64,000 nt of DNA from Candidatus Tayloriibacteriota bacterium (GTDB taxonomy: Bacteria > Patescibacteriota > Minisyncoccia > Phycocordibacterales > PALSA-1337): contig JACRJP010000003.1 in assembly GCA_016215455.1 (NCBI GenBank), positions 66,657-130,656 on the forward strand, written 5' to 3'. The notes under the pieces were generated by a model that made no database searches, was not told the DNA's origin, and saw only the letters and a list, made by a program, of their open reading frames with translations. Positions 7,045-28,768 of the stretch are shown here, one piece after another. The first letter of the stretch is position 1, and every line of letters begins with the position of its first letter. A program made the translations under genes and the position numbers.

Positions 7045-7794
7045 CTAGAGAGGTTTGCCAAGAAATACTTTTTCGAGAATACCGTCAGCTATGATCTTTT
7101 TGGGATCGCCTTGAGCCACCACCTTCCCTTTATCAAGAACATACGCACGATGAGTGATCTCGAGAAGTGATGTGAGATTATGTTCCACCACTACAATAGC
7201 GGTTTTTCGACGTTCGTTAATCTCTTTAATTTTTGCAAACACTTCCTTTACAATCTTAGGGGCGAGACCAAGAGATGGTTCATCAAGAAGTAGGATTTTT
7301 GGATCGGTCATGAGACCTCGAGCAATAGCAAGCATTTGTTGCTGACCTCCTGAGAGAGTACCTGATTTTGCTTTGAGTTTACCGCGAAGCGCTGGGAAAA
7401 GTTCAAGAACATTTTCAATACGCTCTTTGCGTTCTCCTGCTGAGATTGCCCAACCACCGATCTCAAGATTTTCTGCAACGGTAAGATGTCGAAATACACG
7501 ACGACCTTGAGGAACAAAAGAGATACCTCGATGCACCACTTCGTGAGAAACGGGAGTAAATGACTGTCCTTCCCATACCACCTTTCCTAATTCGATGGGA
7601 GCGAGACCGAATATTGCCTTGAGAATCGTTGATTTACCCGCTCCGTTTGGACCCATGAGTGCAACCACCTCCCCCTCATCAACAGCGACTGTAGCGCCAT
7701 TAAGCGCCTTTACACCACCATAGTGAACATGGATGTCATTAAGTTGAAGGAGAAGTTCTTTGGGTATAGTTGTCATGACGAGACCATTATACAC
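7045..7794 (-). CDS. livF: Branched-chain amino acid ABC transporter ATP-binding protein LivF-like
   Basis: Walker A GPNGAGKST, ABC signature LSGGQQQMLAIARGLM, Walker B LLLDEPSLGLAP. 249 aa, LivF-sized. Confidence 0.85.
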   Translation of the reverse strand: MYNGLVMTTIPKELLLQLNDIHVHYGGVKALNGATVAVDEGEVVALMGPNGAGKSTILKAIFGLAPIELGKVVWEGQSFTPVSHEVVHRGISFVPQGRRVFRHLTVAENLEIGGWAISAGERKERIENVLELFPALRGKLKAKSGTLSGGQQQMLAIARGLMTDPKILLLDEPSLGLAPKIVKEVFAKIKEINERRKTAIVVVEHNLTSLLEITHRAYVLDKGKVVAQGDPKKIIADGILEKVFLGKPL

Positions 7795-7838
7795 CTTTCT
7801 TACCTTAGATTAAATAAAAATCCTACTTACGTGACGAG

Positions 7839-8132
7839 CTATGCACGGCGCAAAGCAAGGAACACGAGCAGAACAAATCCCGCAAGAGTAGATCCCAAAC
7901 AAACCAAAGCCTTTTGCAGACCCCAATCTTGCCAAACGTAATACCCCAAGGTCGTCCAGAATCCAATGAGTCCGGCCAGGATGTGGCCAAGAAGAAGGAT
8001 CCACGGACCGACCATGAACACCCCAGCGAGGGTGGTGGTCACGAGAATACCGAGAGCCAACTGGGCCGTCGATTTCTGTGTGGGTTGTGAAGCGACAAAT
8101 GCCACTGAAGATGAAGATAGAGTAGCATGCAC
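7839..8132 (-). CDS. Small hydrophobic membrane protein (GC-elevated ORF inside the liv operon)
   Basis: 97-aa ORF with ~3 TM helices. Local GC (~53%) is well above the neighbours. The alternative 116-aa overlapping frame looks like junk. Confidence 0.4.
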   Translation of the reverse strand: MHATLSSSSVAFVASQPTQKSTAQLALGILVTTTLAGVFMVGPWILLLGHILAGLIGFWTTLGYYVWQDWGLQKALVCLGSTLAGFVLLVFLALRRA

Positions 8133-8224
8133 GGGATGTGTGGTTGGAAATGAATACCATTAAACTGCTTCTGTTGCAATTTATACCACCATACTAATAA
8201 TCCGTCAAATACACATTATGTGTA

Positions 8225-9229
8225 TTACTTCACTACAACAGGACTACCTCTTTCTATCTTCTTGAGTACTAATTCGCGCACTTTTGCACCCGTAGTATCA
8301 AAACCATCTTTGTTAATGTATTCTTTTACACAAACATACGTATCTCCACAACTTTTGAATGCCTTCGATAGGAGCTCTGCAGACTGAAGTGAGAGTCCTG
8401 CAACAGCACCTTGACCATCAGCAATATTTCCAGGGAAAGAATAGTACACACCTTCGACAAGTTCACGTACAGCTGGTAACTCAACCGCATACTGAGAAAA
8501 GATCGGGGCTTTAATACCAAGTTGTGTAAGTCGAGCTACACCCTGACCAAAGAAGAATGCAATGTCAGTTGAAAATATAGCATCGTAGTCCCCTTTTCGA
8601 ATCTTAACCAATTCTGAGGAAACATCAGTTGTATTATCTGGATAGCTAATTTCATGAACAATTGTACCCTTATAGTTTGCTTTAAAACTATCATAATGAG
8701 TCTTTGAAAAAGCATTTTGATAACTAATGAGTACTACTTTTTTATATCCTCGTGCATACATTTGCTCAGCAATAAACTTTGATTCATCTTCAAGGGCGTA
8801 CTGCATGTTATAGAAGTTTCCTCCACTCGTCTCATAGAGTGTTCGTGATGCAGCAGAAGGTACCACTACAATATTCTTTGAATTCTTGAGAAGTGGAACG
8901 ATTGCTTCCTGAGGTGAGCCACAAGCTGGACCAATCACATAGTGCACCTTATCAACTTCGGTAAGTTTTTTAAATGCTGACACGGCCTCTTTTGGTTCAC
9001 ACTTATCATCTTCAAAAATAAATTCGATATTCGGATCTTGTACTGCAAGTACACCCTTCTTCACTTCCTCACCATAGTCAGCAAGAAAACCCGAGAGAGG
9101 TGCAATGACTCCTATTTTTATTTTACCTTGTGTTGTTTGATTCGTGTTATACACCGAAAAACCCAAAACAATCAAAATAATAACAGTAAGAACAATCCGC
9201 TTTTTTGATTTGTTTTTTTGCAGTTCCAT
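8225..9229 (-). CDS. Leu/Ile/Val-binding protein family substrate-binding protein, membrane-anchored (SBP1)
   Basis: N-terminal TM anchor then the type-I periplasmic binding fold. LivK-like motif IKIGVIAPLSGFLADYGEEVKKG. Confidence 0.8.
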   Translation of the reverse strand: MELQKNKSKKRIVLTVIILIVLGFSVYNTNQTTQGKIKIGVIAPLSGFLADYGEEVKKGVLAVQDPNIEFIFEDDKCEPKEAVSAFKKLTEVDKVHYVIGPACGSPQEAIVPLLKNSKNIVVVPSAASRTLYETSGGNFYNMQYALEDESKFIAEQMYARGYKKVVLISYQNAFSKTHYDSFKANYKGTIVHEISYPDNTTDVSSELVKIRKGDYDAIFSTDIAFFFGQGVARLTQLGIKAPIFSQYAVELPAVRELVEGVYYSFPGNIADGQGAVAGLSLQSAELLSKAFKSCGDTYVCVKEYINKDGFDTTGAKVRELVLKKIERGSPVVVK

Positions 9230-9234
9230 ACCTT

Positions 9235-10371
9235 TTATTCAACATCAACAACCTTGCCACCAGAAACCTTTTTCATGACAAACTCTCGTTCAGTATCTCC
9301 ATTTTTATCGATACTAATGACTCCACTAATACCCTGATAATCTTTAACCTTATACAACTCAGACTTGATACACTCAACATCATCACCTCCACATTTTTCC
9401 ATAGCATCAAACAAAACATTGTATCCGTCATACGCAAGAGCAACATAGAGATCTTGAGATGGTGCTGCCGAGTATGTTTTTACATACTCATCAATAAGTG
9501 TTTTTAGAGCCGGTGCCTCAGTATCATACTTGTATGTCGAAGTAAGAACTCCTTCAGCATCAGGATTTGCCAAAATTTCTCGTTGAATGAAATACTCATT
9601 ACCCATGATTGGAGTTTTTACCTGAAGAGCAACTTTTTGCTTTAGGGCTGCTTGAGATGTTGCGACAGAGTTTGTAATAAACAATATTACATCAGGCTTA
9701 GCTTGAGTAAGTTTTAAAATCTGGCTTCGGAGATCTGTTTCATTAGGTGCAAAACCTTCGGTCGCCACTACTGTATATCCAGGTGTACTTGGAAATTTTT
9801 GAACAAAAGCATCCTTAATACCTGTTGGATACTCTGCTGATTCATAGAGAATAGCAGCCTTTTTATAGCCTAGTTTAACAGCTGTCTTTATCATCGCATC
9901 AGCAGTTACCACACCGGATGCTGAGGTACGAAATACATAGTCACCCGCTGTAGTAAGTTTTGGAGTAGTTGAAACAGGGGTAAATAGAATTGCCTTAGCT
10001 TTTTCAGCAAGTGGAGCAGCTGAAAGTGTTGATCCACTACACACACCAGAGATAAGTACTTTTACTTTATCAACATTTAAAAGCTTTGTTGCTGCAGCAA
10101 CTGCTTTTTTAGGATCACAACTATCATCTTCATAAATTACTTCAACTTTTTTACCATTAATTGTGTGATTCTTTGCGTATGCAAGTTTAAATCCATTACC
10201 AATATCAGCACCAGTTGATGCGGCGACAGGACCACTGAAAGGACCAAAATATCCTATTTTAATCGTGTCAGATGAAGACTTATTTGAAAAATAAGTTACA
10301 AAAATCACAACGAGAATCACCACAATAACCCCCCAGAAAACACCCTTCTTGTTTGTTTGTTGCTCAGGCAT
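9235..10371 (-). CDS. LivK/LivJ-family substrate-binding protein, membrane-anchored (SBP2)
   Basis: TM anchor, IKIGYFGPFSGPVAASTG..., conserved D...C...K and DKVKVLIG motifs of the branched-chain amino acid binding family. Confidence 0.8.
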   Translation of the reverse strand: MPEQQTNKKGVFWGVIVVILVVIFVTYFSNKSSSDTIKIGYFGPFSGPVAASTGADIGNGFKLAYAKNHTINGKKVEVIYEDDSCDPKKAVAAATKLLNVDKVKVLISGVCSGSTLSAAPLAEKAKAILFTPVSTTPKLTTAGDYVFRTSASGVVTADAMIKTAVKLGYKKAAILYESAEYPTGIKDAFVQKFPSTPGYTVVATEGFAPNETDLRSQILKLTQAKPDVILFITNSVATSQAALKQKVALQVKTPIMGNEYFIQREILANPDAEGVLTSTYKYDTEAPALKTLIDEYVKTYSAAPSQDLYVALAYDGYNVLFDAMEKCGGDDVECIKSELYKVKDYQGISGVISIDKNGDTEREFVMKKVSGGKVVDVE

Positions 10372-10445
10372 GGTATTTTAATAGTAAATAACCGCTTAAT
10401 TATACACCTGCTACAGAAAGTGCAATAGAATGTCGAGAGCTGTAA

Positions 10446-11474: not shown

Positions 11475-11495
11475 AGATAAATGAATTACTTTAGA

Positions 11496-12647
11496 TTATT
11501 GTAAATCAACATACTTTCCATCTTTCACTGTTCGGAATACCGCAGGACGTTCTACTTCACAGTCATTGTTAAATGAGAGAGTTCCAGTTATACCCTTATA
11601 TCCCTTGAGATTACTAATGTAGTCAGCAACCTTCTGTGGATCATCTCCCACCTTACCAATAGCTTCTGCGAGAAGAGTGACCATTTCATAGTGTGATGCT
11701 GCTAGATACACCGGTTTTGCAGTATATTTTGCAACATATTTTTCTTTGAAGCTTTTTGCTCTCGAAGAATCATTTGATGCTACATCAGATGTATATTCGT
11801 AATCGATGTAATCAATACCTTCTGCAAGTGAGATATTTTTGAGAGCAGGATTTTGAATTGTATAGTAATCGCTCACAAGTGGTTTTTTCCAACCGAGTTC
11901 AGAAATTTGCTTAAGCATTGGCTCCACAGTATTAGCTACCTGGACAACAACCATTGCCTGAGCTTCATTTTGCACAGTCTTAAGTTTTGTTATATTAGTG
12001 CGATAATCTCCATTACCTGCTGCATTGTAAAATTCAGAAACAAGAATCTTACCTCCTTGAGCCTCAAAAGCCTTAGAGAATTCAGTATATATACCTCTTC
12101 CATATTCATTATCAGGTAAAAATGTCACTACCTTAGTGTAATTTTTCTTTGCAAGAAGTTGTGCATAGCCAGGACCAAAGCTTTTTGCAGTCAAAGCGAT
12201 ACGACATGATAGATTTGACCCATCAAAATATGCTGGGGTTGTTGCTCCTGGGACCAACATGACCTTACCGTCCTTAACTGCCACAGGACGAATCGCAGCA
12301 ACTACAGGACTACCATCAGCGACAATATAATTGATACCGGCAAGTTTGAGCGCATTATACGCATCTAAAGACTTTTTAGAATCATAGGCAGAATCTTCCA
12401 TGACCAGCTCAAGTTTTCGGCCATTAATACCGCCAGCTGCGTTAATTTCCTCAATAGCAATAAGACTTGCTTGTTTCTGAAGATCACCAACGAGAGCTTG
12501 TGAACCTGAAAGAATATAAGCACCTCCAATTTTAATTGTTTCGTTTGAAGCTTTATTTCGAGAGAGACCTGTCACTACAACAGCTACTATTACAATCAAG
12601 ACAATGGCCCATAACCATACCGAACTCTTCTTTTGACCTGTTTCCAT
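11496..12647 (-). CDS. LivK/LivJ-family substrate-binding protein, membrane-anchored (SBP4)
   Basis: TM anchor. IKIGGAYILSGSQALVGD..., classic EEINAAGGINGRKLELVMEDSAYD LivK motif. Confidence 0.85.
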   Translation of the reverse strand: METGQKKSSVWLWAIVLIVIVAVVVTGLSRNKASNETIKIGGAYILSGSQALVGDLQKQASLIAIEEINAAGGINGRKLELVMEDSAYDSKKSLDAYNALKLAGINYIVADGSPVVAAIRPVAVKDGKVMLVPGATTPAYFDGSNLSCRIALTAKSFGPGYAQLLAKKNYTKVVTFLPDNEYGRGIYTEFSKAFEAQGGKILVSEFYNAAGNGDYRTNITKLKTVQNEAQAMVVVQVANTVEPMLKQISELGWKKPLVSDYYTIQNPALKNISLAEGIDYIDYEYTSDVASNDSSRAKSFKEKYVAKYTAKPVYLAASHYEMVTLLAEAIGKVGDDPQKVADYISNLKGYKGITGTLSFNNDCEVERPAVFRTVKDGKYVDLQ

Positions 12648-13766: not shown

Positions 13767-13905
13767 GTCTACTAGTATACCTCTAAAGATTATATTGACC
13801 AATAAATAAGACACTAATTTATCAAAATATACAAATAACCTTGATTTATATAGATTCTATGTTATATTATAGTTGTCATAAATCTTGACAGTAATCACAT
13901 ATATC

Positions 13906-14664
13906 ATGAATATCCCTCAATCACTCATTTTCCTTGGTCTCGATGAACACCAAGCACGACTATATACTCATCTCCTAAAACAGCCTAAAAATGCTGAGCT
14001 AACTGTCTTTTCTATTGCCAAAAATATTGACATGCCCCGCTCAACGGTCTACCTTACCCTTCAAGAACTTGAGACAAAGAAACTTGTGTCGTCGTATAAG
14101 AAGAATAATGTACTTCGATATATCGTTGGTGATCCTTCACGACTTGTCCGTGACCTTGAAGAGAAGCAAGAGATCCTGACTGCACTCCTCCCTACTCTAC
14201 AATCACTATCAAAAGATTCTCCTTTCTCACCTTCTGTTCAAACATTCTCAGGAGCAAAAGGAGTTATTACAGTATTCGATGATCTCTATAATAATCCAAA
14301 AGAGAATGGTGTTCGAGAATATCACACATTTTCTCATCCTAAACTTATTGAATATATGCCGAAAAAGTTTCCCAAATATATGGAAGCAAAAAAGAAACTC
14401 AATATTCCAAGCAAACTTCTTGTTCCTGGATTTCTCGCAAAAAACACCCCTAAAGAATATATGTCAGATAGCCATCGTGAGACTCGCTTCTTACCTAACT
14501 CAGTCAATTTTGAAGGAACCCTTGTTATCTATGGTCGCAAAACAGCAATATTCTCTCATCGAGACAATGAAGTCTATTCTATGATCATTGACTCGCCTGC
14601 TATTACCGAAATGCTTGATGCTATATTTCTTACGCTGTGGAATTTGGTACCGAAGAGTAAGTAA
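13906..14664 (+). CDS. TrmB-family winged-helix transcriptional regulator (copy 1 of 5)
   Basis: The ORF track begins at a TTG. Start moved to the ATG at 13906 (MNIPQSLIFLGL). N-terminal TrmB-type HTH (GLDEHQARLYTHLL...ELTVFSIAKNIDMPRSTVYLTLQELETKKLV), ~250 aa. Divergent from the SBP5-to-SBP1 operon. Confidence 0.7.
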   Translation: MNIPQSLIFLGLDEHQARLYTHLLKQPKNAELTVFSIAKNIDMPRSTVYLTLQELETKKLVSSYKKNNVLRYIVGDPSRLVRDLEEKQEILTALLPTLQSLSKDSPFSPSVQTFSGAKGVITVFDDLYNNPKENGVREYHTFSHPKLIEYMPKKFPKYMEAKKKLNIPSKLLVPGFLAKNTPKEYMSDSHRETRFLPNSVNFEGTLVIYGRKTAIFSHRDNEVYSMIIDSPAITEMLDAIFLTLWNLVPKSK

Positions 14665-14666
14665 CT

Positions 14667-15419: not shown

Positions 15420-15443
15420 AGATGTTTCCTTGTCCCCTATATT

Positions 15444-16523: not shown

Positions 16524-16631
16524 AGCGCTGATAATTAAATAATGTACAAAGTGTAACACGACCCTCTTTTTGGCAATAGGCATAAAATCATCAGAATTGC
16601 TGATATTTTTGGTTTGTGGTATACCTGTGAC

Positions 16632-17393: not shown

Positions 17394-17412
17394 CCCCGCC
17401 AGTGTGGCGGGG
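17394..17412. terminator. Hairpin terminator (serves the minus-strand SBP7 gene; T-run on the minus strand)
   Basis: CCCCGCCAgtgTGGCGGGG, 8-bp GC stem. Reverse-complement side is followed by tttcgtttttt. Confidence 0.5.
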
Positions 17413-18575: not shown

Positions 18576-18636
18576 ATTGTCATAAGTATATACTCATGGT
18601 ACTATATGTCCATAATACGGCGAAAAGCGAATACTT

Positions 18637-19407: not shown

Positions 19408-19410
19408 TAA

Positions 19411-20547: not shown

Positions 20548-20601
20548 ATATTTAATGTATGACCATATTCTGGGCTTAAACAAAGCACTTGTAAAGAGTT
20601 T

Positions 20602-21750
20602 CTACTCAGCCTTTACGAACTTGCCACCCCTCACAGTTTGCATCTCAAATGCATCATCAGGTGTTATCAAATAACCCTTTTGATCAAAAGAAATTCTTGA
20701 CAAAGCGGCACCCTTCATATCTTTTGTCTCAGCGATAGCGTCTCGCAAAGTCTGGCCTCCCTTCCCCTTAGTTTTTTCAAGTCCACGAGCAATAACAAAT
20801 ACAGCATCATACGCAGTTACTGCTGATGGATACTGTGGAACATGTCCATATCGTGCAGCGTATACATTTTCAAATTTCTGATACTCAGTCGAATGTTTTG
20901 GTGTTGAGAAATACGATGTCTCAAGATCACGGGCACATGTGGATAATGAGTTATAGTTACCCGCAGCTTCAGTTGCAAGAATTGGTACAGTGAGACCAAG
21001 TTCTCGTGCTTGTTTAGCAAAGACACACTGAGCAGGATCAGTTTCAACAATGAATACAGCGTCCGGATTACTTTGTCGAACCTTAGCGATAGGAGTACGA
21101 AAATCTGTAATCAATGGATTACCGAGGTCCATATCACCAATAATAGTCACACCATATTGTGGAGCATATTCTGTAATAAGATCGGCTGTGAACTTCCAAA
21201 AACCGCCATTAACCGGTCGTATGATGTATATTTTCTTTAAATTATGCTGATTGGCATATGCGAGAATAGTTCGAATTCCAACTCGATTGTCGTACCATGT
21301 TGAAAAGAAGTATGGAGCATCTCTGTCTATCTCAACATGATTAGTAGCGTCAGGCGATATTGTAGGAATTTTTGCTGCCTCTATGAGCGGAATGATCGCT
21401 TCGGTAGGCTCGTCCCACTGTGCACCAACAATTGCAACAACCTTATCGACATCTATCAATTTACTCACTACGAGTGATGCATTTTTCATCTTATCCAATG
21501 AAAGATCTCCTTCGACTAATGCAAGTTGACGACCATCAATGCCGCCTTGTGCGTTAATCTCTTCAACAGCAAGTCGTGCGCCGTTTCTTTCCTCTTCACC
21601 AGGAGCAACTCCAATACCTGTCAAAGCAGATATGCTACCTATATTAATAACAGCACCTTCAGATAGCGCAGGCTGTCGCATATATATAGCAGAAACAGCC
21701 ACTCCCAGAACAACGAGAACAAAAAGGCTTTTAATTACACGTTTCGACAT
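20602..21750 (-). CDS. LivK/LivJ-family substrate-binding protein, membrane-anchored (SBP9)
   Basis: TM anchor. INIGSISALTGIGVAPGEE, EEINAQGGIDGRQLALVEGD. Confidence 0.85.
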   Translation of the reverse strand: MSKRVIKSLFVLVVLGVAVSAIYMRQPALSEGAVINIGSISALTGIGVAPGEEERNGARLAVEEINAQGGIDGRQLALVEGDLSLDKMKNASLVVSKLIDVDKVVAIVGAQWDEPTEAIIPLIEAAKIPTISPDATNHVEIDRDAPYFFSTWYDNRVGIRTILAYANQHNLKKIYIIRPVNGGFWKFTADLITEYAPQYGVTIIGDMDLGNPLITDFRTPIAKVRQSNPDAVFIVETDPAQCVFAKQARELGLTVPILATEAAGNYNSLSTCARDLETSYFSTPKHSTEYQKFENVYAARYGHVPQYPSAVTAYDAVFVIARGLEKTKGKGGQTLRDAIAETKDMKGAALSRISFDQKGYLITPDDAFEMQTVRGGKFVKAE

Positions 21751-21838
21751 AGTGATTATATTTAATATGGTAATCCTATAATAATATGCTAATATATAAA
21801 TTAAGCAAACACTCCCTAGTAGGAGAGTAATTAATTAT

Positions 21839-22591
21839 ATGCAAACACCTTACCCGCGCATTCTCAAACAATTTGGACTCAATCCAAACGACATTAAGAT
21901 ATATAGGACTCTCTATAACCTCGGTAGATCAAAAACAGGTATTATCATACGCGAGACAGCGATCGCCAGTTCACGTGTCTACGCTTCCCTACAGAACCTT
22001 GTGCGCAAAGGCCTCGTTTCATATCAGGTTAAAAACAACATTAAATATTATCAAGCCGAACTACCTGATCAACTTATTGAGGAGGCTGAGGATAATGTCG
22101 AGGAGTTGAAGGGTTTCGCCGACAATCTTAAACTATTCCCTATTTCAAAAAATAAGCGTAACGAAACTAATACATATGAAGGAGTACACGGACTCAAGAT
22201 GGCATACGAGCAACACACCGAAAATCTTGAAAAAGGAGAGACTGTTTCGATCATCGCTTTTGTGGGAGAGGAGTATGCGTCATCACAACCTATCCGGCTT
22301 TTCTTTTCAAAAACAATAGATCGTATAATGATCGAAAAAAAATGCCACGGCAAAATGATCACTCACAAAGAAATTAAAAAGATTATCAAACGTGACCGGC
22401 CTGACAGCTCTATCTATACGATTCGACACTTATCTGAGAACTACACTCTTCCCTACACGGTTAATATTTCAAAAAAAGAAGTTGTCATGGGTGTTTGGGG
22501 CGACGAACCAACAGTATTTACTATCAGCAATCCAGTAGTGGTAAGCGCCTTCCAAAAAAACTTCGATTATCTGTGGAAAATCGCCAAATAA
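21839..22591 (+). CDS. TrmB-family winged-helix transcriptional regulator (copy 4)
   Basis: HTH GLNPNDIKIYRTLYNLGRSKTGIIIRETAIASSRVYASLQNLVRKGLV. 250 aa. Divergent from the SBP9-SBP8 pair. Confidence 0.7.
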   Translation: MQTPYPRILKQFGLNPNDIKIYRTLYNLGRSKTGIIIRETAIASSRVYASLQNLVRKGLVSYQVKNNIKYYQAELPDQLIEEAEDNVEELKGFADNLKLFPISKNKRNETNTYEGVHGLKMAYEQHTENLEKGETVSIIAFVGEEYASSQPIRLFFSKTIDRIMIEKKCHGKMITHKEIKKIIKRDRPDSSIYTIRHLSENYTLPYTVNISKKEVVMGVWGDEPTVFTISNPVVVSAFQKNFDYLWKIAK

Positions 22592-22605: not shown

Positions 22606-23271
22606 TTATACACCTACCTTGTAATATCTCCACTTGTAACCGATTGCATCAATTTCTTCAAAAGAGAGAACTCTATATCCATATCTTCCAATCATCATTT
22701 CAAAATCAGAAAAATCATCCTCACCTTTAAAATTAATATGAGTTATTGCGATATTCCCTTCTGGTGATACATAAGATTTTGCTTCTTCAAGAAATCTTTT
22801 GTGGATTTGATATTCAGGATCATAGAGTGATGATTCAATAATACCTTCAATAGGAAAGTCTGTTATGGGTAGATTTGCGATGATGAGATCGAATTTGTCC
22901 TTGGGAACATTTTCGAATACATCACTTTCGATTACTTCTACTATTTCTCCTACACCATTCCTTTGTGCATTATCTTGCGCGCATTTTACAGCATCCTTGT
23001 TGATATCAACTGCAACTACTTTTTGTGCACCCATTTTTGCTGCCCTAATAGCATGGATACCTGTACCAGTTCCTATATCAAGAACTTTTTTATTCTTCAA
23101 ATCCCCAAAGACATGATGTAACTCTATGGATGAGTGAGAAAATTTACTCTGGGGAGGAAAAACATTTTTACATGTTTGAATCTGTATACCATCAATATCA
23201 AGAATCTTGGATTCCTGATTTTTAATATCGATAAGAAAATCCTGAGTAAGTTGTGGATTAATCTTTTTCAT
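22606..23271 (-). CDS. Class I SAM-dependent methyltransferase (MTS/HemK-like small-domain type)
   Basis: VLDIGTGTGIHAIRAA SAM motif, VAVDIN motif II, DLIIANLP in place of the NPPY-type motif IV. Last gene of the coiled-coil/livH/livM operon. Confidence 0.6.
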   Translation of the reverse strand: MKKINPQLTQDFLIDIKNQESKILDIDGIQIQTCKNVFPPQSKFSHSSIELHHVFGDLKNKKVLDIGTGTGIHAIRAAKMGAQKVVAVDINKDAVKCAQDNAQRNGVGEIVEVIESDVFENVPKDKFDLIIANLPITDFPIEGIIESSLYDPEYQIHKRFLEEAKSYVSPEGNIAITHINFKGEDDFSDFEMMIGRYGYRVLSFEEIDAIGYKWRYYKVGV

Positions 23272-23306
23272 TTATTACTTAGCATAGTGCAATTTAATAA
23301 ACTTCT

Positions 23307-24173
23307 TTAAAGCTTATATTCCCCCACCAAACCTTGCGGCCGATACAACATGAGAAGAATCAAAATGACACCGTATGACACCTGGCGCATTTGAGCAGCG
23401 ATATCTGATGGGAAACCAACGAAACGGAGAATTTCTGGAAGAAGAATGAGAATGACGGCACCCAACACTGCCCCTTTATTATTCGCCAAACCTCCCATGA
23501 TGATGATAGCGAGAAGAAAGATTGATTCGTTCAGAGTAAATGTTGAAGGATCAATGAAGGTGATGTAACTTGCAAAGAGTGACCCTGCAATTGAAGCGAG
23601 CATTGCACCGATAACAAAGATTGCGAGTTTATAGAACAGAGTATTGTAACCAAATACTCGAATCGCATCTTCATCTTCACGAATAGCTTTAAGAACGCGA
23701 CCGAATGAAGATTTCACAATATACTGTGATACTCCATATACAAGAAGAAGTGCAAGTGCCGACAAAAGAAGGAACCAAATATTTTCTGAGAACGTAAAAC
23801 CAAAAAGTGAGGGTCGTGGAATGCCAGGAATACCAAGAGGGCCTCGTGTCAGTGACTGCCAATTCAAAAAGATACTGTATACGATAATGTTGAAACCGAA
23901 TGATCCGAGTGCGTAATAGTCATCTTTGAATTTCGACAAAACAAAACCAATGAGCAAACTTACCACACCTGAAATAATCATTCCAAGAATAACTGATACA
24001 AAGAAATTCATTCCTGTTGTCGTGAGAAGAATTGCTGTTGCATATGCTCCCATTCCATAGAACGCAGCCTGAGTCACTGACAACAACCCTGTCACACCCA
24101 CAATAAGATTGAGCGATAGGCCCAAGATGCCGTAGATACAGATCAGTATGGCGATGTGGATGAGATATTCCAT
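23307..24173 (-). CDS. livM: Branched-chain amino acid ABC transporter permease LivM-like
   Basis: 288-aa polytopic membrane protein of the branched-chain amino acid permease fold. Adjacent to livH. Confidence 0.8.
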   Translation of the reverse strand: MEYLIHIAILICIYGILGLSLNLIVGVTGLLSVTQAAFYGMGAYATAILLTTTGMNFFVSVILGMIISGVVSLLIGFVLSKFKDDYYALGSFGFNIIVYSIFLNWQSLTRGPLGIPGIPRPSLFGFTFSENIWFLLLSALALLLVYGVSQYIVKSSFGRVLKAIREDEDAIRVFGYNTLFYKLAIFVIGAMLASIAGSLFASYITFIDPSTFTLNESIFLLAIIIMGGLANNKGAVLGAVILILLPEILRFVGFPSDIAAQMRQVSYGVILILLMLYRPQGLVGEYKL

Positions 24174-24174
24174 A

Positions 24175-25041
24175 TTATTTCTTTAATATTCCCTGCGGCC
24201 GAACAAGAAGGAATATGATGAGTACACCGAATGCAATAGCATCTTTCCATTCTCCTGAAATTTTCCAAATACCGAAGTTCTCAACAAAACCAAGAAGGAA
24301 TGCACCAAGAACTCCACCATATATATTACCAATACCACCAATGATAGAGGCGATAACTCCCTTTAAAAGAAGTGAAAGCCCCATCGTTGGTTCAATTCCT
24401 GTATCAAATCCTACCAATATACCTGCAAGTCCCGCGATTGCTGAACCGATAAAGAACACCTTACCGATAATTGATCGGGTATTGATCCCTACAATCTTTG
24501 AAACTTCCTCATCATCTCCTACCGCCTTCACCGCCTTACCAAACATCGTGTACTTGAGAGTAAGTGCCATAGCGAACATAAGCACGAGACCAGTGATGAG
24601 AATAATAAGTTGGACCTGCGTAATGACTCCACCAGCTATTTCAAATACTCGTTCATCTCCTGCACTTCGAGAAAGAGTTTGAAACTGACTTGTAAAAAGG
24701 ATTGCGAGCACGGACTGTAGTGCAGTAAAAGCACCGAGAGCAGCTACGAGTAGCACCATACTTGAGGACTTTCTTTCACGAAGTGGTGCATAGATAGAAC
24801 GATAGATAAAGAAACCAATGAGTCCTGCTATAACCATACCAAGCGGAATAGCGATCCAGAGACTAAGACCAAGTGTTTTATAAAAATAGAAGACTGCATA
24901 GCCACCCACTGCTGCAAGTGCGCCGTATCCAAGATCAAAGAATTTTGCAGTACCGTAGATGAGATTAAAACCAAGTGCCACCATCGTATAAATCGCTCCT
25001 GCAATAATACTATTGACGATAAGTTGTGGGACAATGTCCAT
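24175..25041 (-). CDS. livH: Branched-chain amino acid ABC transporter permease LivH-like
   Basis: 288-aa polytopic permease. Gene abuts livM with a 1-nt gap (stop at 24175, livM start at 24173). Conserved permease loop region. Confidence 0.8.
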   Translation of the reverse strand: MDIVPQLIVNSIIAGAIYTMVALGFNLIYGTAKFFDLGYGALAAVGGYAVFYFYKTLGLSLWIAIPLGMVIAGLIGFFIYRSIYAPLRERKSSSMVLLVAALGAFTALQSVLAILFTSQFQTLSRSAGDERVFEIAGGVITQVQLIILITGLVLMFAMALTLKYTMFGKAVKAVGDDEEVSKIVGINTRSIIGKVFFIGSAIAGLAGILVGFDTGIEPTMGLSLLLKGVIASIIGGIGNIYGGVLGAFLLGFVENFGIWKISGEWKDAIAFGVLIIFLLVRPQGILKK

Positions 25042-25069
25042 GGCCTACATTATATGCCCCCGGAGGATT

Positions 25070-25411
25070 TTAGGAAAGTTTATGTTCGAGTTTACGCACC
25101 CTCTTTTCTAAAGCGCGATGATCTTCATATTTTACTCGTGTAATAGACAAATCGTCGATCCTTCGTTCAAGGCCATCAAAACGATAAATTGTATATTCTT
25201 TAAATTCAACAAATTCTTTATAGAAATTGTCGATTCTACCATTCGTATCTTCAAATCCTCGTGCAACCATCAAAGCAAACTCTTCAAAACGAGCATCGAG
25301 TTTAGTATCGATAAGAACATCAATTTTCTTTTCGAATCTAATTTCAAAATCATCGAAAAGACCCTTGATAAGGGTGATGTCTGCTGAATTGAGTGTTGGC
25401 TGAATATTCAT
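25070..25411 (-). CDS. Hypothetical coiled-coil protein, paralog B (first copy at 6591-6917)
   Basis: Start refined to MNIQPTLNSADITLIKG (ATG at 25409-25411). C-terminal V.YEDHRALEKRVRKLEHK mirrors V.YVDHKTLSKRVDKLEEK of paralog A. Lies 29 nt upstream of livH. Confidence 0.5.
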   Translation of the reverse strand: MNIQPTLNSADITLIKGLFDDFEIRFEKKIDVLIDTKLDARFEEFALMVARGFEDTNGRIDNFYKEFVEFKEYTIYRFDGLERRIDDLSITRVKYEDHRALEKRVRKLEHKLS

Positions 25412-25508
25412 ACTTTCTATTGTGCTGAGTATAAAATACTTCCCTACAAAAGACCATAAAATTCTGTTCAAAAAATCTCAAAAACTTTATCAGAATTTCA
25501 TACAACAA

Positions 25509-25541
25509 AAAAGACCCTGTTATTGAGGGTCTTTTTTGTTG
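25509..25541. terminator. Bidirectional hairpin terminator
   Basis: aaaaaAGACCCTgttattgAGGGTCTttttt, separating SBP10 from the coiled-coil/livHM operon. Confidence 0.6.
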
Positions 25542-25553
25542 TATGGATGATAA

Positions 25554-26669
25554 TTATTTTAAATCAACAAGACTACCATTAACAATTTGTCGAACTCGAT
25601 AAGCTGGATTCTTTACATCACCATATTGATCAAACTGAATATGCCCTGAAACCCCTTGAAAATCACTCGCTCGTACAGCGTCTGAGAGTTTATCAGGATC
25701 ACTCACACCAACCTGTTTAATCGCAGCAAAAACTGCCTGAGCTGCATCATATGCTTGAGGTGCACATGTTGGAACTTGATCTCCTCCAGTCTTAGCAAGT
25801 AATTTTTTAGCGAAATCAGGAGTTGGATTTGCAACAGATTCAGTAAATAGGATATCTATTGCTTTAGGAAGGTTTGCGAGGAATTTTGTGTCTCCAAATG
25901 TTTCTGAAGCAAACAATTTTGCTGTTATTCCAAGATCTTTGATCTGTTTAACAACGACAGTTGCACCTTCTGGATAAAGAGCGAAGTAAATATAGTCAGG
26001 TTTTGTATTCTTAATCTTAGTTAACTGTGTTTTATAATCTCGAACATCTGCAGTAACACCCTCTTCTGCTACCACCGTACCACCAAGTTCCTTAAATCGA
26101 TTAATGAAGACCTCCTTAAGTCCAGACCCATAATCACTTATATGGTAGATTAGAGCTACCTTACGTGCACCTAGATCATTATAAAGGTATTCAGCCGCGT
26201 ATCTTCCTTGAAGAGCATCTGACGGATACGTTCGGAAAAAGAATTTACCTGAATTACTCAATGGAGGGGCTGACGAACAGTATGAAACAACAATCTTCTT
26301 TGTCTCCATTGCTGATTTTACAAAGGCTGAGGTCTCACCTGAACACAAACCACCAATAACTCCACTCACCTTATCGATATTGAATAATTTTTGTGCTGCA
26401 TTAGTTGCTGGCAAAGGAGAACATTTTCCATCCTCATAGATAACCTCGACTTTTTGACCATTGAGACCGCCCGCAGCATTTACCTCATCGGCAGCGACCT
26501 CTACTGCTGCTCGAGAAGCAAGACCTAGAGATGACGCATCCCCAGTTAGAGGACCGACAAACCCAATCTTAATCGGACTCGTTTCTTTCTCTGTACGTGT
26601 TCCAAAAGCGAGCACGAGTATCACTACAAGAACGATACTACCTACCACCCATTTGCCGAATTTAGACAT
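25554..26669 (-). CDS. LivK/LivJ-family substrate-binding protein, membrane-anchored (SBP10)
   Basis: TM anchor. IKIGFVGPLTGDASSLG, EVNAAGGLNGQKVEVIYEDGKC. Confidence 0.85.
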   Translation of the reverse strand: MSKFGKWVVGSIVLVVILVLAFGTRTEKETSPIKIGFVGPLTGDASSLGLASRAAVEVAADEVNAAGGLNGQKVEVIYEDGKCSPLPATNAAQKLFNIDKVSGVIGGLCSGETSAFVKSAMETKKIVVSYCSSAPPLSNSGKFFFRTYPSDALQGRYAAEYLYNDLGARKVALIYHISDYGSGLKEVFINRFKELGGTVVAEEGVTADVRDYKTQLTKIKNTKPDYIYFALYPEGATVVVKQIKDLGITAKLFASETFGDTKFLANLPKAIDILFTESVANPTPDFAKKLLAKTGGDQVPTCAPQAYDAAQAVFAAIKQVGVSDPDKLSDAVRASDFQGVSGHIQFDQYGDVKNPAYRVRQIVNGSLVDLK

Positions 26670-26709
26670 AATAATATCCTTATTTGTAATAAGGATATTA
26701 TATACCTCT

Positions 26710-27810
26710 CTATTGTATTGTCACTGACTTACCATCTTGAATTATTCTCAGCACCGCCTTCGACACCACCAGTCCATCAGCATCAATCTTGAGTCCATTT
26801 CCCAAAGCTCCATTATAGTTATTAATTCTAAGGAGAGCTTGAGTAATGTCTGAAGTATTTGGTAACGACTTCTTTTCAATAGATTCTGTTGCTTCGACTA
26901 TGATGCCTAAAATATCATATCCATTTGGGGTTGCTATCGAAGGATTCTTTTGAAACTTGTCACTATACATTTTTGTAAATCCTGAAGTCGGATCAGCAGC
27001 ATTCACGTACCACAAATTCTCAAACATTCCAGGATTATCAGATAACTCAAACGATTCAATCGACGTCAAAGGAATTTTTACCCCCGCTTCACGAATCTGT
27101 TTTGTCAGTACTTCAAGTTCTGGAGAAAACATCATGAGGACAGTATAGTCCGCACCCGAATTCTTTAACTGACTTACCTGAGTTCTAAAATCTTTTGTTC
27201 CGAACGACGTGACACTCTCGTACACAATCTCAATATCAGTACCTGATATTTGTTTCTTGAGTTCCTTAATCATTTCAGTAATACCAGAAATCTGCTGACC
27301 AAAAACTGCAATCTTCTTGATTTGACGTTTTTCTGCTTCCTTCACAAAAAGACCGATCTCTTCAACTGGAGGAGTCCAATTAATGAAATTGTAATCTCCT
27401 TTTGCAATATTCGGATCAGAGGCAATACCAAAATGAATAATTTTATTTTTCTCAGCAAGTGGATTAACCGCAGATCCTGCCGCAGAAGCAAAAGTCACAA
27501 CAGCCTGTACTTTGTCATAGTCCACAAGTTTTTGAAAAGCTGAAACTGTTCGTGCAGGAACAAATCCATCATCTTCAAAAACTGCTTCATATGTATACTT
27601 TGTATTCTTCTTTTGAGCTTCCTCGACAGCAAGAAGAACTGCATTTTTTACACCTTCTCCCAAGAAAGCAACATTACCTGATAATGGGAGAATATATCCG
27701 ATTTTAATAACTGGCTTCTCTGGTGTATCTACTGATTTTTCTTTATATATCACACTACCTACAACCACGATTACGATAATACTAACAAGGGTAATAATTT
27801 TATATTTCAT
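26710..27810 (-). CDS. LivK/LivJ-family substrate-binding protein, membrane-anchored (SBP11)
   Basis: TM anchor. IKIGYILPLSGNVAFLGEG. Periplasmic binding fold. Confidence 0.8.
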   Translation of the reverse strand: MKYKIITLVSIIVIVVVGSVIYKEKSVDTPEKPVIKIGYILPLSGNVAFLGEGVKNAVLLAVEEAQKKNTKYTYEAVFEDDGFVPARTVSAFQKLVDYDKVQAVVTFASAAGSAVNPLAEKNKIIHFGIASDPNIAKGDYNFINWTPPVEEIGLFVKEAEKRQIKKIAVFGQQISGITEMIKELKKQISGTDIEIVYESVTSFGTKDFRTQVSQLKNSGADYTVLMMFSPELEVLTKQIREAGVKIPLTSIESFELSDNPGMFENLWYVNAADPTSGFTKMYSDKFQKNPSIATPNGYDILGIIVEATESIEKKSLPNTSDITQALLRINNYNGALGNGLKIDADGLVVSKAVLRIIQDGKSVTIQ

Positions 27811-27964
27811 ATATTTATACTTACCCTAAAATTATAGGACAATTATTAATTATACATGTCAAATATATCTATACACACATCATTATACGGCTCTATATAT
27901 AGATATAATACATATTCTGTATATTTTGTTCGTCATAAGTAACAAAAAATGCTACGATACGCAT

Positions 27965-28768
27965 ATGATCTCCCATGAAGATTTAGTCCACAAAATCAAT
28001 AAAACGGGACTTACCGACAAAGAATCTTTTGTCTATAGCTATCTCATTGAAACAGGAGGTGGGTACCCCTCAAAAATATCTGAAGTAACAAAATTAAACC
28101 GAAGTACGGTATATAAGATTCTTACTTCCCTTGCTGTTAAAGGATTGGTAACTGAAATCGAAAAAAGAAAGAAGCTATTCTTTCAACCAGAATCTCCCGA
28201 AAAACTTCTTCGCTTTGCAGAAATGAAGAAACAACGTGCGTCCGAAGATCTTGAGTACGCTAAAAAAGTATTTCCTGAACTCGAAGCTCTCTTTTCTCTT
28301 TCTCCAGGTAAACCTGTTGTTAGATTCTTTCAAGACAAAAGTGGAATCATGAGTATTTTTGAGGATCATATAAAAACCACTAAGGCGTATGAAATGGTGG
28401 GCTTTGCAAACATAGGAGGACTCGAAGATATATTTCCTAAAGACTTTTTTAGAAAATATGTAGCAACAAAAGAAAAATTAAAAATTACTACTCGAGGCAT
28501 CGTACAGGATACAACACAGGATCGCACCTTTAACGATCGAATGTATACAACTGTGCAAGCTGCATATAAGTTACAACTACGATATGTACCAAGTAAATAC
28601 ATTCCCCTACAAGGAGAACTTATTTGCTACGCTGAAAATAAAGTTTCAATTGTTAACAAAACTGAATCTGGCTTTGTTGGTATTATTATCGAAGACAAAC
28701 CTATTCACGAAATGGTTCGCAAAATATTTGAGCTCGCATGGATCGGAGCAGAAAAGTTTCAAAAGTAA
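27965..28768 (+). CDS. TrmB-family winged-helix transcriptional regulator (copy 5)
   Basis: Start refined to MISHEDLV. HTH GLTDKESFVYSYLIETGGGYPSKISEVTKLNRSTVYKILTSLAVKGLV. Divergent from the SBP11-SBP10 pair. Confidence 0.7.
   Translation: MISHEDLVHKINKTGLTDKESFVYSYLIETGGGYPSKISEVTKLNRSTVYKILTSLAVKGLVTEIEKRKKLFFQPESPEKLLRFAEMKKQRASEDLEYAKKVFPELEALFSLSPGKPVVRFFQDKSGIMSIFEDHIKTTKAYEMVGFANIGGLEDIFPKDFFRKYVATKEKLKITTRGIVQDTTQDRTFNDRMYTTVQAAYKLQLRYVPSKYIPLQGELICYAENKVSIVNKTESGFVGIIIEDKPIHEMVRKIFELAWIGAEKFQK

Follow-up and report, generated by a model that had tools for sequence, protein, structure and literature searches.

That several substrate-binding proteins (SBPs) can share one translocator is a known principle of ABC import. 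TrmBL2, a chromatin-like protein, shows no response to an effector. TrmB proteins bind palindromes, regulate their own expression and act as activators or repressors depending on the position of the operator, and TrmB itself is encoded inside an SBP-dependent ABC gene cluster (PMC4158304). In the open-access full-text literature searched, we found no description of a TrmB-like regulator paired with a Liv-type SBP, nor of TrmB in combination with Patescibacteria. Within that literature, the statement of the initial annotation that the locus matches no described system therefore holds. Since the sharing of a translocator by SBPs is already known as a principle, the novelty is limited to the arrangement described here.

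We analyzed a 64-kb stretch of DNA (the window) from Candidatus Taylorbacteria (Patescibacteria/CPR), an ultra-small bacterium. Profile searches and an ORF scan of the window place eleven LivK/Peripla_BP_6 genes, all on the minus strand, between positions 7045 and 28768. Interspersed among them are five plus-strand TrmB-family genes of ~250 aa and a dispersed core set of one livF, one livG, one LivH-type and one LivM-type gene. The minus-strand genes form five transcription units, each starting with an SBP gene that faces a divergent TrmB-like gene, and the core genes lie inside these units. An HMM scan of all ORFs of the window found no further Liv-type components or ABC ATPases; the window also carries a bacterial RNase P and a Pth gene. 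The initial annotation had described eleven minus-strand SBP genes, a single dispersed livF/G/H/M set and five divergent regulator–SBP pairings. Profile scores bear out the first, gene order in the window supports the third, and the second holds in the window and likewise in all related loci examined. The proposed SBP11-SBP10 operon is divergent from REG5 as described, but the unit is longer and continues, with gaps of 1-82 bp, through a 133-aa ORF, livH, livM and a methyltransferase gene. For six genes the likely true start is internal to the longest ORF (SBP5 13766, SBP6 16523, SBP8 20547, REG1 13906, REG2 16632 and REG5 27965). The genes are listed below by window coordinates (percentages are identities; L numbers denote loci in other genomes).

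7045-7794, minus strand: livF-type ABC ATPase, PF00005 120 bits; ends the conserved part of the SBP5..SBP1 unit
7839-8132, minus strand: ORF of 97 aa in the SBP1-livF gap, three hydrophobic helices; gene status uncertain
8225-9229, minus strand: SBP1, 334 aa, the shortest; PF13458 93 bits, N-terminal half only
9235-10371, minus strand: SBP2, PF13458 184 bits
10446-11474, minus strand: SBP3, PF13458 60 bits; L016 ortholog 41%
11496-12647, minus strand: SBP4, PF13458 150 bits; orthologs 49-69% in L001, L002, L003
12696-13814, minus strand: SBP5, PF13458 117 bits; orthologs 42-51%; heads the unit divergent from REG1
13885-14664, plus strand: REG1, PF01978; orthologs 60-74%
14667-15419, minus strand: livG-type ABC ATPase, PF00005 with PF12399 BCA_ABC_TP_C tail; LivG/UrtD-type; second in the SBP6 unit
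15444-16640, minus strand: SBP6, PF13458 97 bits; heads its unit
16614-17378, plus strand: REG2, PF01978 52 bits; orthologs 49% in L017, L018
17394-17412, minus strand: terminator candidate, G+C-rich hairpin and T-run between convergent REG2 and SBP7
17481-18575, minus strand: SBP7, PF13458 176 bits; unit of one gene; orthologs 52-58%
18637-19407, plus strand: REG3, PF01978; orthologs 57-60%, all transcribed divergently from SBP7 orthologs
19411-20583, minus strand: SBP8, PF13458 186 bits; second gene in the SBP9 unit
20602-21750, minus strand: SBP9, PF13458 164 bits; orthologs 42-55%; nearest PDB entry 4gnr
21839-22591, plus strand: REG4, PF01978
22606-23271, minus strand: MTS/PrmA-like methyltransferase, PF05175 and PF06325; HemK/MTQ2-like; last in the livHM unit
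23307-24173, minus strand: LivM/UrtC-type permease, PF02653 163 bits; NCBIfam LivM 184 bits; orthologs 66-86%
24175-25041, minus strand: LivH/UrtB-type permease, PF02653 161 bits; NCBIfam UrtB and LivH
25070-25471, minus strand: 133-aa coiled-coil ORF between SBP10 and livH
25554-26669, minus strand: SBP10, PF13458 210 bits; most LivJ-like of the eleven
26710-27810, minus strand: SBP11, PF13458 147 bits; heads the unit divergent from REG5
27926-28768, plus strand: REG5, PF01978 48 bits; orthologs 38-53%

All eleven SBPs match PF13458 Peripla_BP_6 above the Pfam gathering score (60-210 bits), with pairwise identities of 21-37%. The N-terminus of each carries one hydrophobic segment (mean Kyte-Doolittle 2.0-3.4; beginning after Met17 in SBP5 and after Met40 in SBP6), in line with their earlier description as membrane-anchored, and inspection of these segments found no lipobox Cys in any of them. 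The AF2 model of SBP1 shows a full two-lobed type I fold (pLDDT 86.5, pTM 0.81), so the fold proposed for the family is predicted for its shortest copy as well. This model superposes on LivJ 4gnr and LivK 3td9 with TM-scores of 0.78-0.82, and proteins that bind aromatic acids, urea and pyroglutamate are among its structural neighbours. The SBP1 ortholog in L003 (6507-7505) has 332 aa. SBP10 matches the PDB entries 3td9, 4gnr and LivJ (E 1e-29 to 1e-33), SBP7 is nearest to 4gnr and LivJ, and SBP2 scores 126 bits with the LivJ/K-type NCBIfam model vs 52 with UrtA. The amino-acid contact residues of LivJ are kept only in SBP10, which retains equivalents of S79, T102, Y150, Y202 and E226, and partly in SBP2, which retains most of the positions; this alignment is approximate, at ~25% identity and with a provisional LivJ reference sequence.

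The core genes score about equally with Liv and Urt models of NCBIfam and none reaches an equivalog cut-off, including livF, which is LivF/UrtE-type with orthologs at 67-87% in related loci. Between genomes, identity is 55-87% for core proteins vs 37-69% for SBP orthologs. The SBP1-livF gap is GC-rich (GC content 0.51-0.58); no SBP remnant was found in it, and its 97-aa ORF has no Pfam match. The 133-aa ORF likewise has no Pfam match, is missing from related loci and has a 35% identical paralog at 6591-6992. The methyltransferase is probably an unrelated passenger. The hairpin between REG2 and SBP7 (8-bp stem with 7 GC pairs, then TTTCGTTTTT) is a likely terminator.

REG1-REG5 all pass PF01978 TrmB (39-52 bits) and can be aligned end to end with 21-29% identity. 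They share a wHTH, a coiled coil and a PLD-like domain that is non-catalytic. The AF2 model of REG1 (pLDDT 91.7) has TrmBL2 as its best full-length fold match (E 7e-14). Their designation as TrmB-like thus stands at the family level, but, unlike TrmB, none of the five matches the sugar-binding subdomain (PF11495), and in their short architecture they are closest to TrmBL2; the "sensor" role attributed to them is therefore an assumption. REG4 is 100% identical to P0002, a Candidatus Taylorbacteria MAG protein (HZA80_01915); together with the bacterial RNase P and the Pth gene, this identifies the host as a CPR bacterium rather than an archaeon. Recognition helices are conserved within each REG orthogroup and differ between orthogroups, while the Tyr equivalent to TrmB Y50 (PMC4158304) is invariant. 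REG2-like homologs at 33-43% identity neighbour radical-SAM, glycosyltransferase, alanine racemase and other genes. Because these distant CPR members adjoin unrelated genes, the Liv-locus set is a lineage-specific expansion within a regulator family that is general in CPR, and not all of that family is paired with Liv-type SBPs.

The interleaved layout with a single dispersed core recurs in at least ten related Paceibacteria MAG loci (L001, L002, L003, L005, L010-L017), and is thus real and conserved in related genomes. Each SBP and REG paralog has orthologs in other genomes at 40-69% identity, vs 21-37% between paralogs, indicating that the diversification is ancient, as first proposed. Pairs of specific regulator and SBP orthogroups persist though module order differs between genomes: the divergent REG4-SBP9 pair is kept in seven other loci, REG3-SBP7 in 3/3, REG5-SBP11 in 4/4 (in L017, L011 and L010 an SBP11 ortholog, 37-55% identical, faces a divergent REG5 ortholog), REG2-SBP6 in L017 (SBP6 ortholog 68%) and REG1-SBP5 in L003 and not in L001 or L002. 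These cognate pairs, together with the paralog-specific palindromes listed below, strengthen the earlier idea of a repeated SBP/regulator module.

13874-13890: O1, TGTCA-N7-TGACA; 5 nt past the REG1 -10-like box, 16 nt before the REG1 ATG
16590-16604: O2, ATCAG-N5-CTGAT; abuts the REG2 -10-like box
18615-18632: O3, ATTCG-N8-CGAAT (window copy ATACG...); 4 nt before the REG3 ATG
21810-21827: O4, CTCTCC-N6-GGAGAG (window copy CACTCC...); downstream of the REG4 -10 box
27926-27945: O5, quasi-palindrome TTGTT-N10-AACAA; abuts the REG5 -10-like box

These five distinct palindromes, one per REG orthogroup, are conserved amid otherwise diverged intergenic DNA, each directly downstream of the -10-like box of its own regulator. 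They have the geometry of known TrmB-family operators (PMC4158304), with 5-6 bp half-sites and a 5-10 bp spacer. O1 is kept in the window, where it occurs as one exact copy, and in L001, L002 and L003; O2 is the same 15-mer in L017 and has one mismatch in L018; O5 is conserved in the window, L017 and L011. O3 and its flanking TGTCCA are kept in the window, L003 and L005. O4 has one copy in the window. Of the 11 REG4-type loci with a readable upstream region, 10 have it (L011 does not; L010, whose contig ends before this region, is not counted), at 7 to 26 nt from the ATG and with a half-site consensus frequency of 0.96 vs 0.57 for the spacer and 0.55 for the far flank.

At REG3 and REG4 the intergenic regions span 61-88 bp and the palindrome adjoins the conserved -35 of the divergent SBP promoter. 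O3 lies 2 nt from the predicted SBP7 -35 (TGGACA; promoter match 10/12), and O4 lies 1 nt from that of SBP9 (TTGCNT), an arrangement of operator-1 nt-TTGCNT-16-17 nt-TAnnnT seen in six loci and less clear in L003 and L015. O1 and O5 are >100 bp from the start codons of SBP5 and SBP11, so their position speaks only weakly for control of those units. Distant members of the family have GTCA-N7/8-TGAC overlying the -35 box of their own promoters, which makes autoregulation look family-wide.

We consider it reasonably likely that the eleven SBPs feed a shared HAAT-family translocator, from five units that each face a regulator with its own predicted operator. The LivH-type and LivM-type permeases with the LivG-type and LivF-type ATPases would form a single importer for up to eleven SBPs, each tethered to the membrane by its N-terminal anchor helix. 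Each regulator dimer, held by the coiled-coil dimerisation helix, would most likely sit on one paralog-specific palindromic operator; this binding, whether it activates or represses, and which ligands and effectors are involved are inferred. An operator at or just after the regulator transcription start gives the geometry of autorepression, and at REG3 and REG4, where it abuts the SBP -35 box, the same bound dimer may also control the cognate SBP unit, positively or negatively. The spread of livF, livG and livHM over three units would be best explained by repeated insertion of regulator and SBP modules into an ancestral livK-HMGF operon, which fits the adjacency of livG-livF in L016 and of livM-livG in L014.

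It is unlikely that some SBPs are instead served by other Liv-type or different ABC cores elsewhere in the genome, or that some are no transport receptors but function in sensing, surface binding or contact with a host. The DNA examined is 64 kb of the genome, the core scores do not separate Liv from Urt, most SBPs are without LivJ contact residues and SBP fold neighbours bind varied ligands, all of which would suit such roles; yet exactly one livF, livG, livH and livM stands amid the SBPs in every related locus, embedded in SBP units, and CPR genomes are small. We find it quite improbable that the regulators only autoregulate, or are general TrmBL2-like nucleoid proteins whose adjacency to SBPs is a by-product of locus growth. 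The structural match to a chromatin protein, the location of the palindromes at the regulators' own promoters, the distant relatives away from Liv genes and the remoteness of O1 and O5 from SBP starts are consistent with this. However, the orthogroup pairs have outlasted the shuffling of modules, O3 and O4 abut conserved SBP -35 boxes within short intergenic regions, and the fact that palindromes and recognition helices are specific to each paralog speaks against non-specific binding.

All five palindromes fall within predicted 5' leaders of regulator mRNAs and could also be read as RNA hairpins, with, for example, CUCUCC of REG4 sequestering a GGAGAG Shine-Dalgarno. GGAGAG does resemble a ribosome-binding site and the O4 hairpin reaches -6.0 kcal/mol (z-score -2.05), but all these hairpins are only weakly stable (-2.3 to -6.0 kcal/mol), O3 does not adopt the palindromic fold at all, and changes in O4 (window, L003, L012, L015, L016) are one-sided and without compensation. 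The variable O4-ATG distance and the agreement with TrmB-family operator geometry (PMC4158304) also count against this reading, which we judge highly improbable.

For regulated SBP units around a shared translocator, five independent repressors would place livF, livG and livHM under three separate controls, which is awkward for the core of one transporter unless the units are effectively constitutive or the core has internal promoters. New here are the recurring layout, the cognate regulator–SBP pairs, the orthogroup-specific palindromes and the TrmBL2-like regulator type. We propose an amino-acid scavenging locus of Candidatus Taylorbacteria, in which the eleven SBPs would widen the set of importable amino acids, or of similar small solutes, for a cell poor in biosynthesis.

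We examined the eleven minus-strand genes SBP1-SBP11, which the initial annotation had read as a family of LivK-type binding proteins. In the ORF listing and Pfam scan, all 11 ORFs (334-398 aa) lie above the PF13458 (Peripla_BP_6) gathering score, and PDB sequence matches within the set are to LivJ, LivK, 3td9 and 4gnr. Every SBP carries one strongly hydrophobic N-terminal segment, and a lipobox cysteine is found in none of the 11. SBP1 has the weakest Pfam match of the set. Its predicted model nevertheless shows both lobes of the type I binding-protein fold in full (pLDDT 86.5, pTM 0.81), has a TM-score of about 0.8 to LivJ 4gnr and LivK 3td9, and contains the anchor segment as a helix at residues 7-29. 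The possibility that SBP1 is a truncated pseudogene is ruled out by this full predicted fold and by an ortholog of 332 aa in another genome. Since SBP1 models completely and has an ortholog, the type I binding-protein fold claimed for these proteins stands for the whole set. Pairwise identity among the 11 SBPs in the window is 21-37%, and best-hit analysis assigns the paralogs to orthogroups older than the genomes compared, in agreement with the ancient diversification that had been proposed.

The genes of the ABC translocator core had been described as one dispersed copy each of livF, livG, livH and livM:

7045-7794, LivF-type ATPase (PF00005; best NCBIfam match LivF/UrtE)
14667-15419, LivG-type ATPase (PF00005 and a PF12399 BCA_ABC_TP_C tail; best NCBIfam match LivG/UrtD)
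23307-24173, LivM-type permease (PF02653, BPD_transp_2, 163 bits; best NCBIfam match LivM/UrtC)
24175-25041, LivH-type permease (PF02653, BPD_transp_2, 161 bits; best NCBIfam match UrtB/LivH)

Only the LivG-type member of the two ATPases has the BCA_ABC_TP_C tail. When all ORFs of the 64-kb window were scanned with HMMs, 7045-28768 accounted for every Liv-type gene and ABC ATPase detected, and the single-copy description thus holds within the window. Liv and Urt NCBIfam models score about equally for the core genes, and all scores fall far below the equivalog cut-offs; identity to E. coli Liv or Urt at the equivalog level, which would fix the substrate, is not reached here. With the likely true starts, gaps inside the minus-strand units measure 1-92 bp and the divergent intergenic regions 139, 108, 61, 88 and 154 bp. 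The SBP11-SBP10 unit is present as first described, but it extends further, through a 133-aa ORF, livH, livM and an MTS/PrmA-type methyltransferase gene. The locus is flanked by housekeeping genes (GyrA, S1, Pth, signal peptidase, HisRS, FtsA and FtsZ).

Several smaller features lie in and beside these units. The 430-bp gap between SBP1 and livF (7795-8224) has a GC content of 0.51-0.58, against about 0.39 nearby. It was checked as a decayed SBP and holds no SBP remnant; it contains a 97-aa ORF (7839-8132, minus strand) with three hydrophobic helices and no Pfam match, which may encode a small accessory membrane protein. Two minus-strand genes encode coiled-coil paralogs of 133 aa that share 35% identity; they are located between SBP10 and livH (25070-25471) and just after livF (6591-6992), with no family match and no counterpart found in the related loci. 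The MTS/PrmA/HemK-like methyltransferase gene (22606-23271, minus strand) ends the livHM unit, and in the related locus L003 a homolog of 29% identity (18545-19063) is located among the SBP genes; the methyltransferase may be a conserved associate of the locus or a passenger. A G+C-rich hairpin, CCCCGCCACACTGGCGGGG (17394-17412), strong and followed by a T-run, separates the convergent genes REG2 and SBP7; it is likely the SBP7 terminator and possibly a bidirectional one. No Rfam riboswitch or leader RNA was found in the locus at the gathering threshold.

The nearest solved relatives of SBP7, SBP9, SBP10 and SBP11 are amino-acid-binding proteins of the HAAT family (3td9, 4gnr, LivJ/LivK, 3ip5 and 4nqr), and SBP10 and SBP2 score far higher against the LivJ/K-type NCBIfam model than against UrtA. 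In alignments at about 25% identity to a sequence that we take to be the E. coli LivJ reference, its landmark residues being at their published positions, the LivJ contact residues S79, T102, Y150, Y202 and E226 appear to be kept in SBP10 and mostly in SBP2, and the alpha-amino-acid contact positions appear replaced in the other nine SBPs. Among the fold neighbours of SBP1 are proteins that bind 4-hydroxybenzoate, urea or pyroglutamate. To judge from these comparisons, the most likely ligand class of some SBPs is amino acids, and a wider solute range is plausible for others.

The regulators REG1-REG5 are plus-strand ORFs of 250-280 aa that align over their whole length at 21-29% identity. They had been called TrmB-like, and all five pass PF01978 (39-52 bits, cut-off 25.6), with a profile match to TrmB 3qph at E 5e-7. 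In the AF2 model of REG1 (pLDDT 91.7), a wHTH is followed by a long helix (residues 78-101) and an alpha/beta domain, and the best full-length Foldseek matches of the model are TrmBL2 (E 7e-14) and TrmB (E 7e-10). The helix has a pLDDT of about 90, the TrmBL2 alignment continues through it, and in the model it is predicted to be an amphipathic coiled-coil dimerisation helix. A PLD-like fold is present in the regulators, but all five lack the catalytic HxK(x)4D motif. None of them matches PF11495, the C-terminal effector-binding domain with the sugar-binding subdomain, and they score at most 20 bits against the TrmBL2 equivalog NF041141 (cut-off 530). They share the truncated TrmBL2 architecture of about 260 aa that lacks the sugar-binding part. 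REG1-REG5 are thus short, TrmBL2-like members of the TrmB family without the subdomain that carries most sugar contacts. A tyrosine matching TrmB Y50, the Tyr of the TrmB motif NRVYD, is invariant in 55 aligned family sequences; Y50 is reported to be important for DNA recognition (PMC4158304). The recognition helices differ between the REG orthogroups and are conserved within each, with the motifs PRSTVYL, KPxTxYLTL, PKSxxYDA, SSRVYxSL and NRSTxYKIL.

The five regulators, used in a profile search, retrieved 79 proteins; all those with a named source belong to MAGs of Candidatus Taylorbacteria, Paceibacterota or Patescibacteria. REG4 matches the Taylorbacteria MAG protein HZA80_01915 at 100% identity, and REG1 matches a protein from a Logan assembly at 99.6%. 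The TrmB annotation had suggested an archaeal host. This is ruled out by the bacterial class A RNase P RNA, Pth and the Taylorbacteria/Patescibacteria homologs, which together make the host a CPR bacterium. The RNase P RNA (63457-63824, minus strand) scores only 149.7 bits, with a gathering score of 100, and this low score suggests a divergent, CPR-type molecule. Elsewhere in the window, the region 47900-50400 reaches a GC content of about 0.50 and has no Rfam match; it holds two long minus-strand ORFs (47964-49046 and 49180-50334) without Pfam match, overlapped by several plus-strand ORFs. A class I aminoacyl-tRNA synthetase gene follows (50488-52887, plus strand), and its Pfam catalytic-domain match falls in two separate stretches, which suggests an insertion in the catalytic domain.

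To place the locus among its relatives, we read contigs encoding regulator homologs together with loci from a scan of species-representative genomes, annotating about a dozen (L001, L002, L003, L005 and L010-L017) by HMM and best-hit assignment. In all of them, LivK-type SBP genes are interleaved with TrmB-like genes, the core genes are scattered among SBP units, and livF, livG, livH-type and livM-type genes never occur more than once each, with fewer in short or cut loci. Between genomes, core proteins are 55-87% identical and SBP orthologs 37-69%. An SBP gene separates the LivM-type from the LivH-type permease gene in L002 (14674-17561) and L017 (5809-8623), so that the core is more fragmented there than in the window. 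livG and livF are adjacent in L016, and livM and livG in L014; these gene orders look like intermediates of an ancestral livK-HMGF operon taking up inserted modules. In L003, the SBP7 ortholog is split into two overlapping ORFs (14179-15075 and 15063-15521), reflecting either a frameshift (pseudogene) or an assembly error.

Divergent regulator-SBP pairs of the window recur in these loci as follows:

REG4-type with SBP9-type: L001, L005, L011, L013, L014, L016 and L017
REG3-type with SBP7-type: L003 and L005
REG5-type with SBP11-type: L017, L011 and L010
REG2-type with SBP6-type: L017 (68% ortholog), with a trace in L018
REG1-type with SBP5-type: L003 and, more distantly, L011; not L001 or L002

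SBP5-type genes pair with a further regulator group in L002 and L013. The order of modules varies between genomes and the pairs persist, still divergent. That pairs are kept while module order changes is our main comparative argument for a functional link between each regulator and its SBP.

By aligning the regions upstream of orthologous regulator genes, we found that each REG orthogroup has its own conserved palindrome inside otherwise diverged DNA:

13874-13890, O1, upstream of REG1: TGTCA-N7-TGACA, conserved in 4 loci
16590-16604, O2, upstream of REG2: ATCAG-N5-CTGAT, identical in L017 and with one mismatch in L018
18615-18632, O3, upstream of REG3: ATTCG-N8-CGAAT, conserved in 3 loci
21810-21827, O4, upstream of REG4: CTCTCC-N6-GGAGAG, in 10 of 11 readable loci
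27926-27945, O5, upstream of REG5: TTGTT-N10-AACAA, conserved in 3 loci

The O4 half-sites match the consensus at a frequency of 0.96, against 0.57 for the spacer and 0.55 for the far flank. O1 and O4 are each present once, with no extra copies beyond chance near SBP promoters or elsewhere in the window. All five palindromes directly follow the regulator's -10-like box, at or just after the expected transcription start, a position that is the geometry of putative autorepression. Consensus scans for promoters and terminators performed at chance overall (37 found, 37 expected) and were therefore used only where a site is conserved across orthologous loci. Read from the SBP side, the REG4 module consists of the operator, 1 nt, TTGCNT, 16-17 nt and TAnnnT, an arrangement that is clear in six loci and less clear in L003 and L015. 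O3 sits 2 nt from a promoter of the form TGGACA-16-TATACT, and the -35 box of this promoter is conserved along with O3. The spacing of O3 and O4 to both promoters places a single site just downstream of one promoter and just upstream of the divergent -35 box. The predicted RNA folding of the palindromes is weak (-2.3 to -6.0 kcal/mol), and we rejected an RNA hairpin as their general explanation. Because of this weak folding and because O4 variants are one-sided, DNA operators are the better reading, and we propose O1-O5 as candidate palindromic operators at the regulators' own promoters. Proteins of the TrmB family recognise such palindromes as TACT-N3-AGTA, TATCAC-N5-GTGATA and TACT-N7-8-GAGTA, can autoregulate, and repress from a site at or after the transcription start or activate from one upstream of the core promoter (PMC4158304). 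By analogy, the locus appears to fit this operator logic in a bacterial setting.

The initial annotation had proposed that pairing of TrmB-like regulators with Liv-type SBPs is systematic. This is borne out by the cognate pairs across related loci, but not by distant homologs, which lie beside unrelated genes. A metagenome scan with REG2 gave 31 loci, in which Liv genes were looked for within 4 kb. The closest homolog (L018, 49%) is Liv-associated, and L024 and L031 lie beside livG-livM-livH; apart from these three, no Liv gene was found within 4 kb of the REG2 homologs of 33-43% identity, whose neighbours include genes for radical-SAM proteins, a GT4 glycosyltransferase, alanine racemase and a PaaX-like protein. 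The contig of one REG2-like gene (L041) may be archaeal, since a replication factor C homolog adjoins the gene. The distant members (L019-L043) have a conserved GTCA-N7/8-TGAC palindrome about 40-60 bp upstream of the REG2-like gene, of the same type as O1 and overlapping the gene's own TTGACT -35 box. Since distant members adjoin unrelated genes and carry a palindrome at their own promoter, short TrmB-like proteins form a general family of putative autoregulators in CPR genomes, with the Liv-locus regulators as a lineage-specific expansion whose predicted operators have diverged.

We compared the locus with known systems. Like E. coli LivJ/LivK-LivHMGF (HAAT, TC 3.A.1.4), it encodes a pair of BPD_transp_2 permeases, a pair of ATPases of which one has the LivG C-terminal motif, and binding proteins of type I (cluster B). 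In E. coli, more than one binding protein delivers to one translocator, as is predicted here. However, there are eleven binding proteins here rather than two, they are membrane-anchored by an N-terminal helix rather than free in the periplasm, and the core genes are spread over three transcription units. Control is predicted to lie with local TrmB-like regulators, whereas E. coli liv is under Lrp control. Several binding proteins per translocator are established for Liv, Bra and Opp, and local regulators beside importer genes are commonplace. In the multi-receptor importers of scavenging or reduced bacteria, such as those of Borrelia (OppA1-5 with one OppBCDF) and Rhizobium (BraC/BraC3 with BraDEFG), many paralogous binding proteins widen the substrate range of a single translocator, as they may here, but Opp belongs to another ABC family, and neither system is known to have interleaved paralogous regulators or core genes dispersed among receptor genes.

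TrmB of Thermococcus litoralis and Pyrococcus furiosus, the founding example of its family, is itself encoded inside an SBP-dependent ABC gene cluster, for trehalose/maltose (PMC4158304), and shares with REG1-REG5 the PF01978 wHTH encoded within an importer locus, the recognition Tyr and the coiled-coil dimerisation helix after the wHTH. The REGs differ in their bacterial host, their size (250 aa against 338 aa), the lack of a PF11495 match and of the sugar-binding beta subdomain, their place beside amino-acid-type rather than sugar-type SBPs, and their number, with five paralogs in one locus that each have a different predicted operator. TrmB binds a palindrome at the binding-protein promoter (PMC4158304), as the REGs may do here. 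TrmBL2 (PF0496/TK0471, PDB 5bqt/5bpd) has the same truncated architecture of about 260 aa (PMC4158304), but its sequence identity to the REGs is only 13-16%, and it is an abundant chromatin-like protein with little DNA sequence preference (PMC4158304), unlike the REGs with their own conserved palindromes and gene partners. TrmBL1, Tgr and VNG1451C repress or activate from a palindromic operator depending on its position, and they have been proposed to autoregulate (PMC4158304). O3 and O4 combine the two kinds of position, relative to two divergent promoters. The TrmBL1 group acts at archaeal BRE/TATA promoters on global sugar regulons, whereas here the promoters are sigma-70-like and bacterial and the predicted regulons are single-locus.

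This is a real and conserved locus whose single core holds within the 64-kb window and whose function we infer. One interpretation is a 'plug-in receptor' platform, in which the PLD-like domain of each short TrmB-like paralog would sense how much of the solute brought in by the cognate SBP is present in the cytoplasm. The paralog would act from a single operator, located at about +3 to +20 relative to the regulator's promoter and, counted from the divergent SBP promoter that overlaps it, at about -38 to -55; from this site it could switch the regulator gene off and the receptor unit on, or the reverse. As the core subunits are spread over three units, transporter assembly would be combinatorially gated. 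We consider it rather unlikely that solute sensing, the dual-position operator and gated assembly all hold jointly. If they did, the locus would provide the first bacterial TrmB regulon that responds to an effector, and the first case in which the regulatory circuit of a Patescibacteria nutrient-uptake system is worked out. In the open-access full texts searched, we found no paper combining TrmB with Patescibacteria, none on Taylorbacteria and amino-acid ABC transporters, and no relevant one on the TrmB family and branched-chain amino-acid transporters. The pairing accordingly has no match among described systems there, as had been suspected, nor did we find in these texts the combination of a CPR lineage, a single split HAAT core, up to 11 anchored receptors and short TrmB-like regulators with distinct operators and cognate receptors.

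Patescibacteria/CPR have tiny genomes, little biosynthesis and few transcription factors, and to our knowledge their nutrient acquisition and its regulation are largely uncharted. This locus devotes about 22 kb to one importer, eleven receptors and five regulators, which would be a few per cent of a typical CPR genome of roughly 1 Mb, and the same design is kept across related genomes. The predictions are testable with recombinant proteins and no culture, through five regulator-operator pairs, five regulator-receptor pairs and the SBP ectodomains. The regulators also provide a natural series of diverged recognition-helix/operator pairs for studies of DNA-binding specificity. As far as we know, the TrmB family has so far been studied essentially in archaea and sugar metabolism, and the locus would extend it to bacteria and to amino-acid-type transporters.
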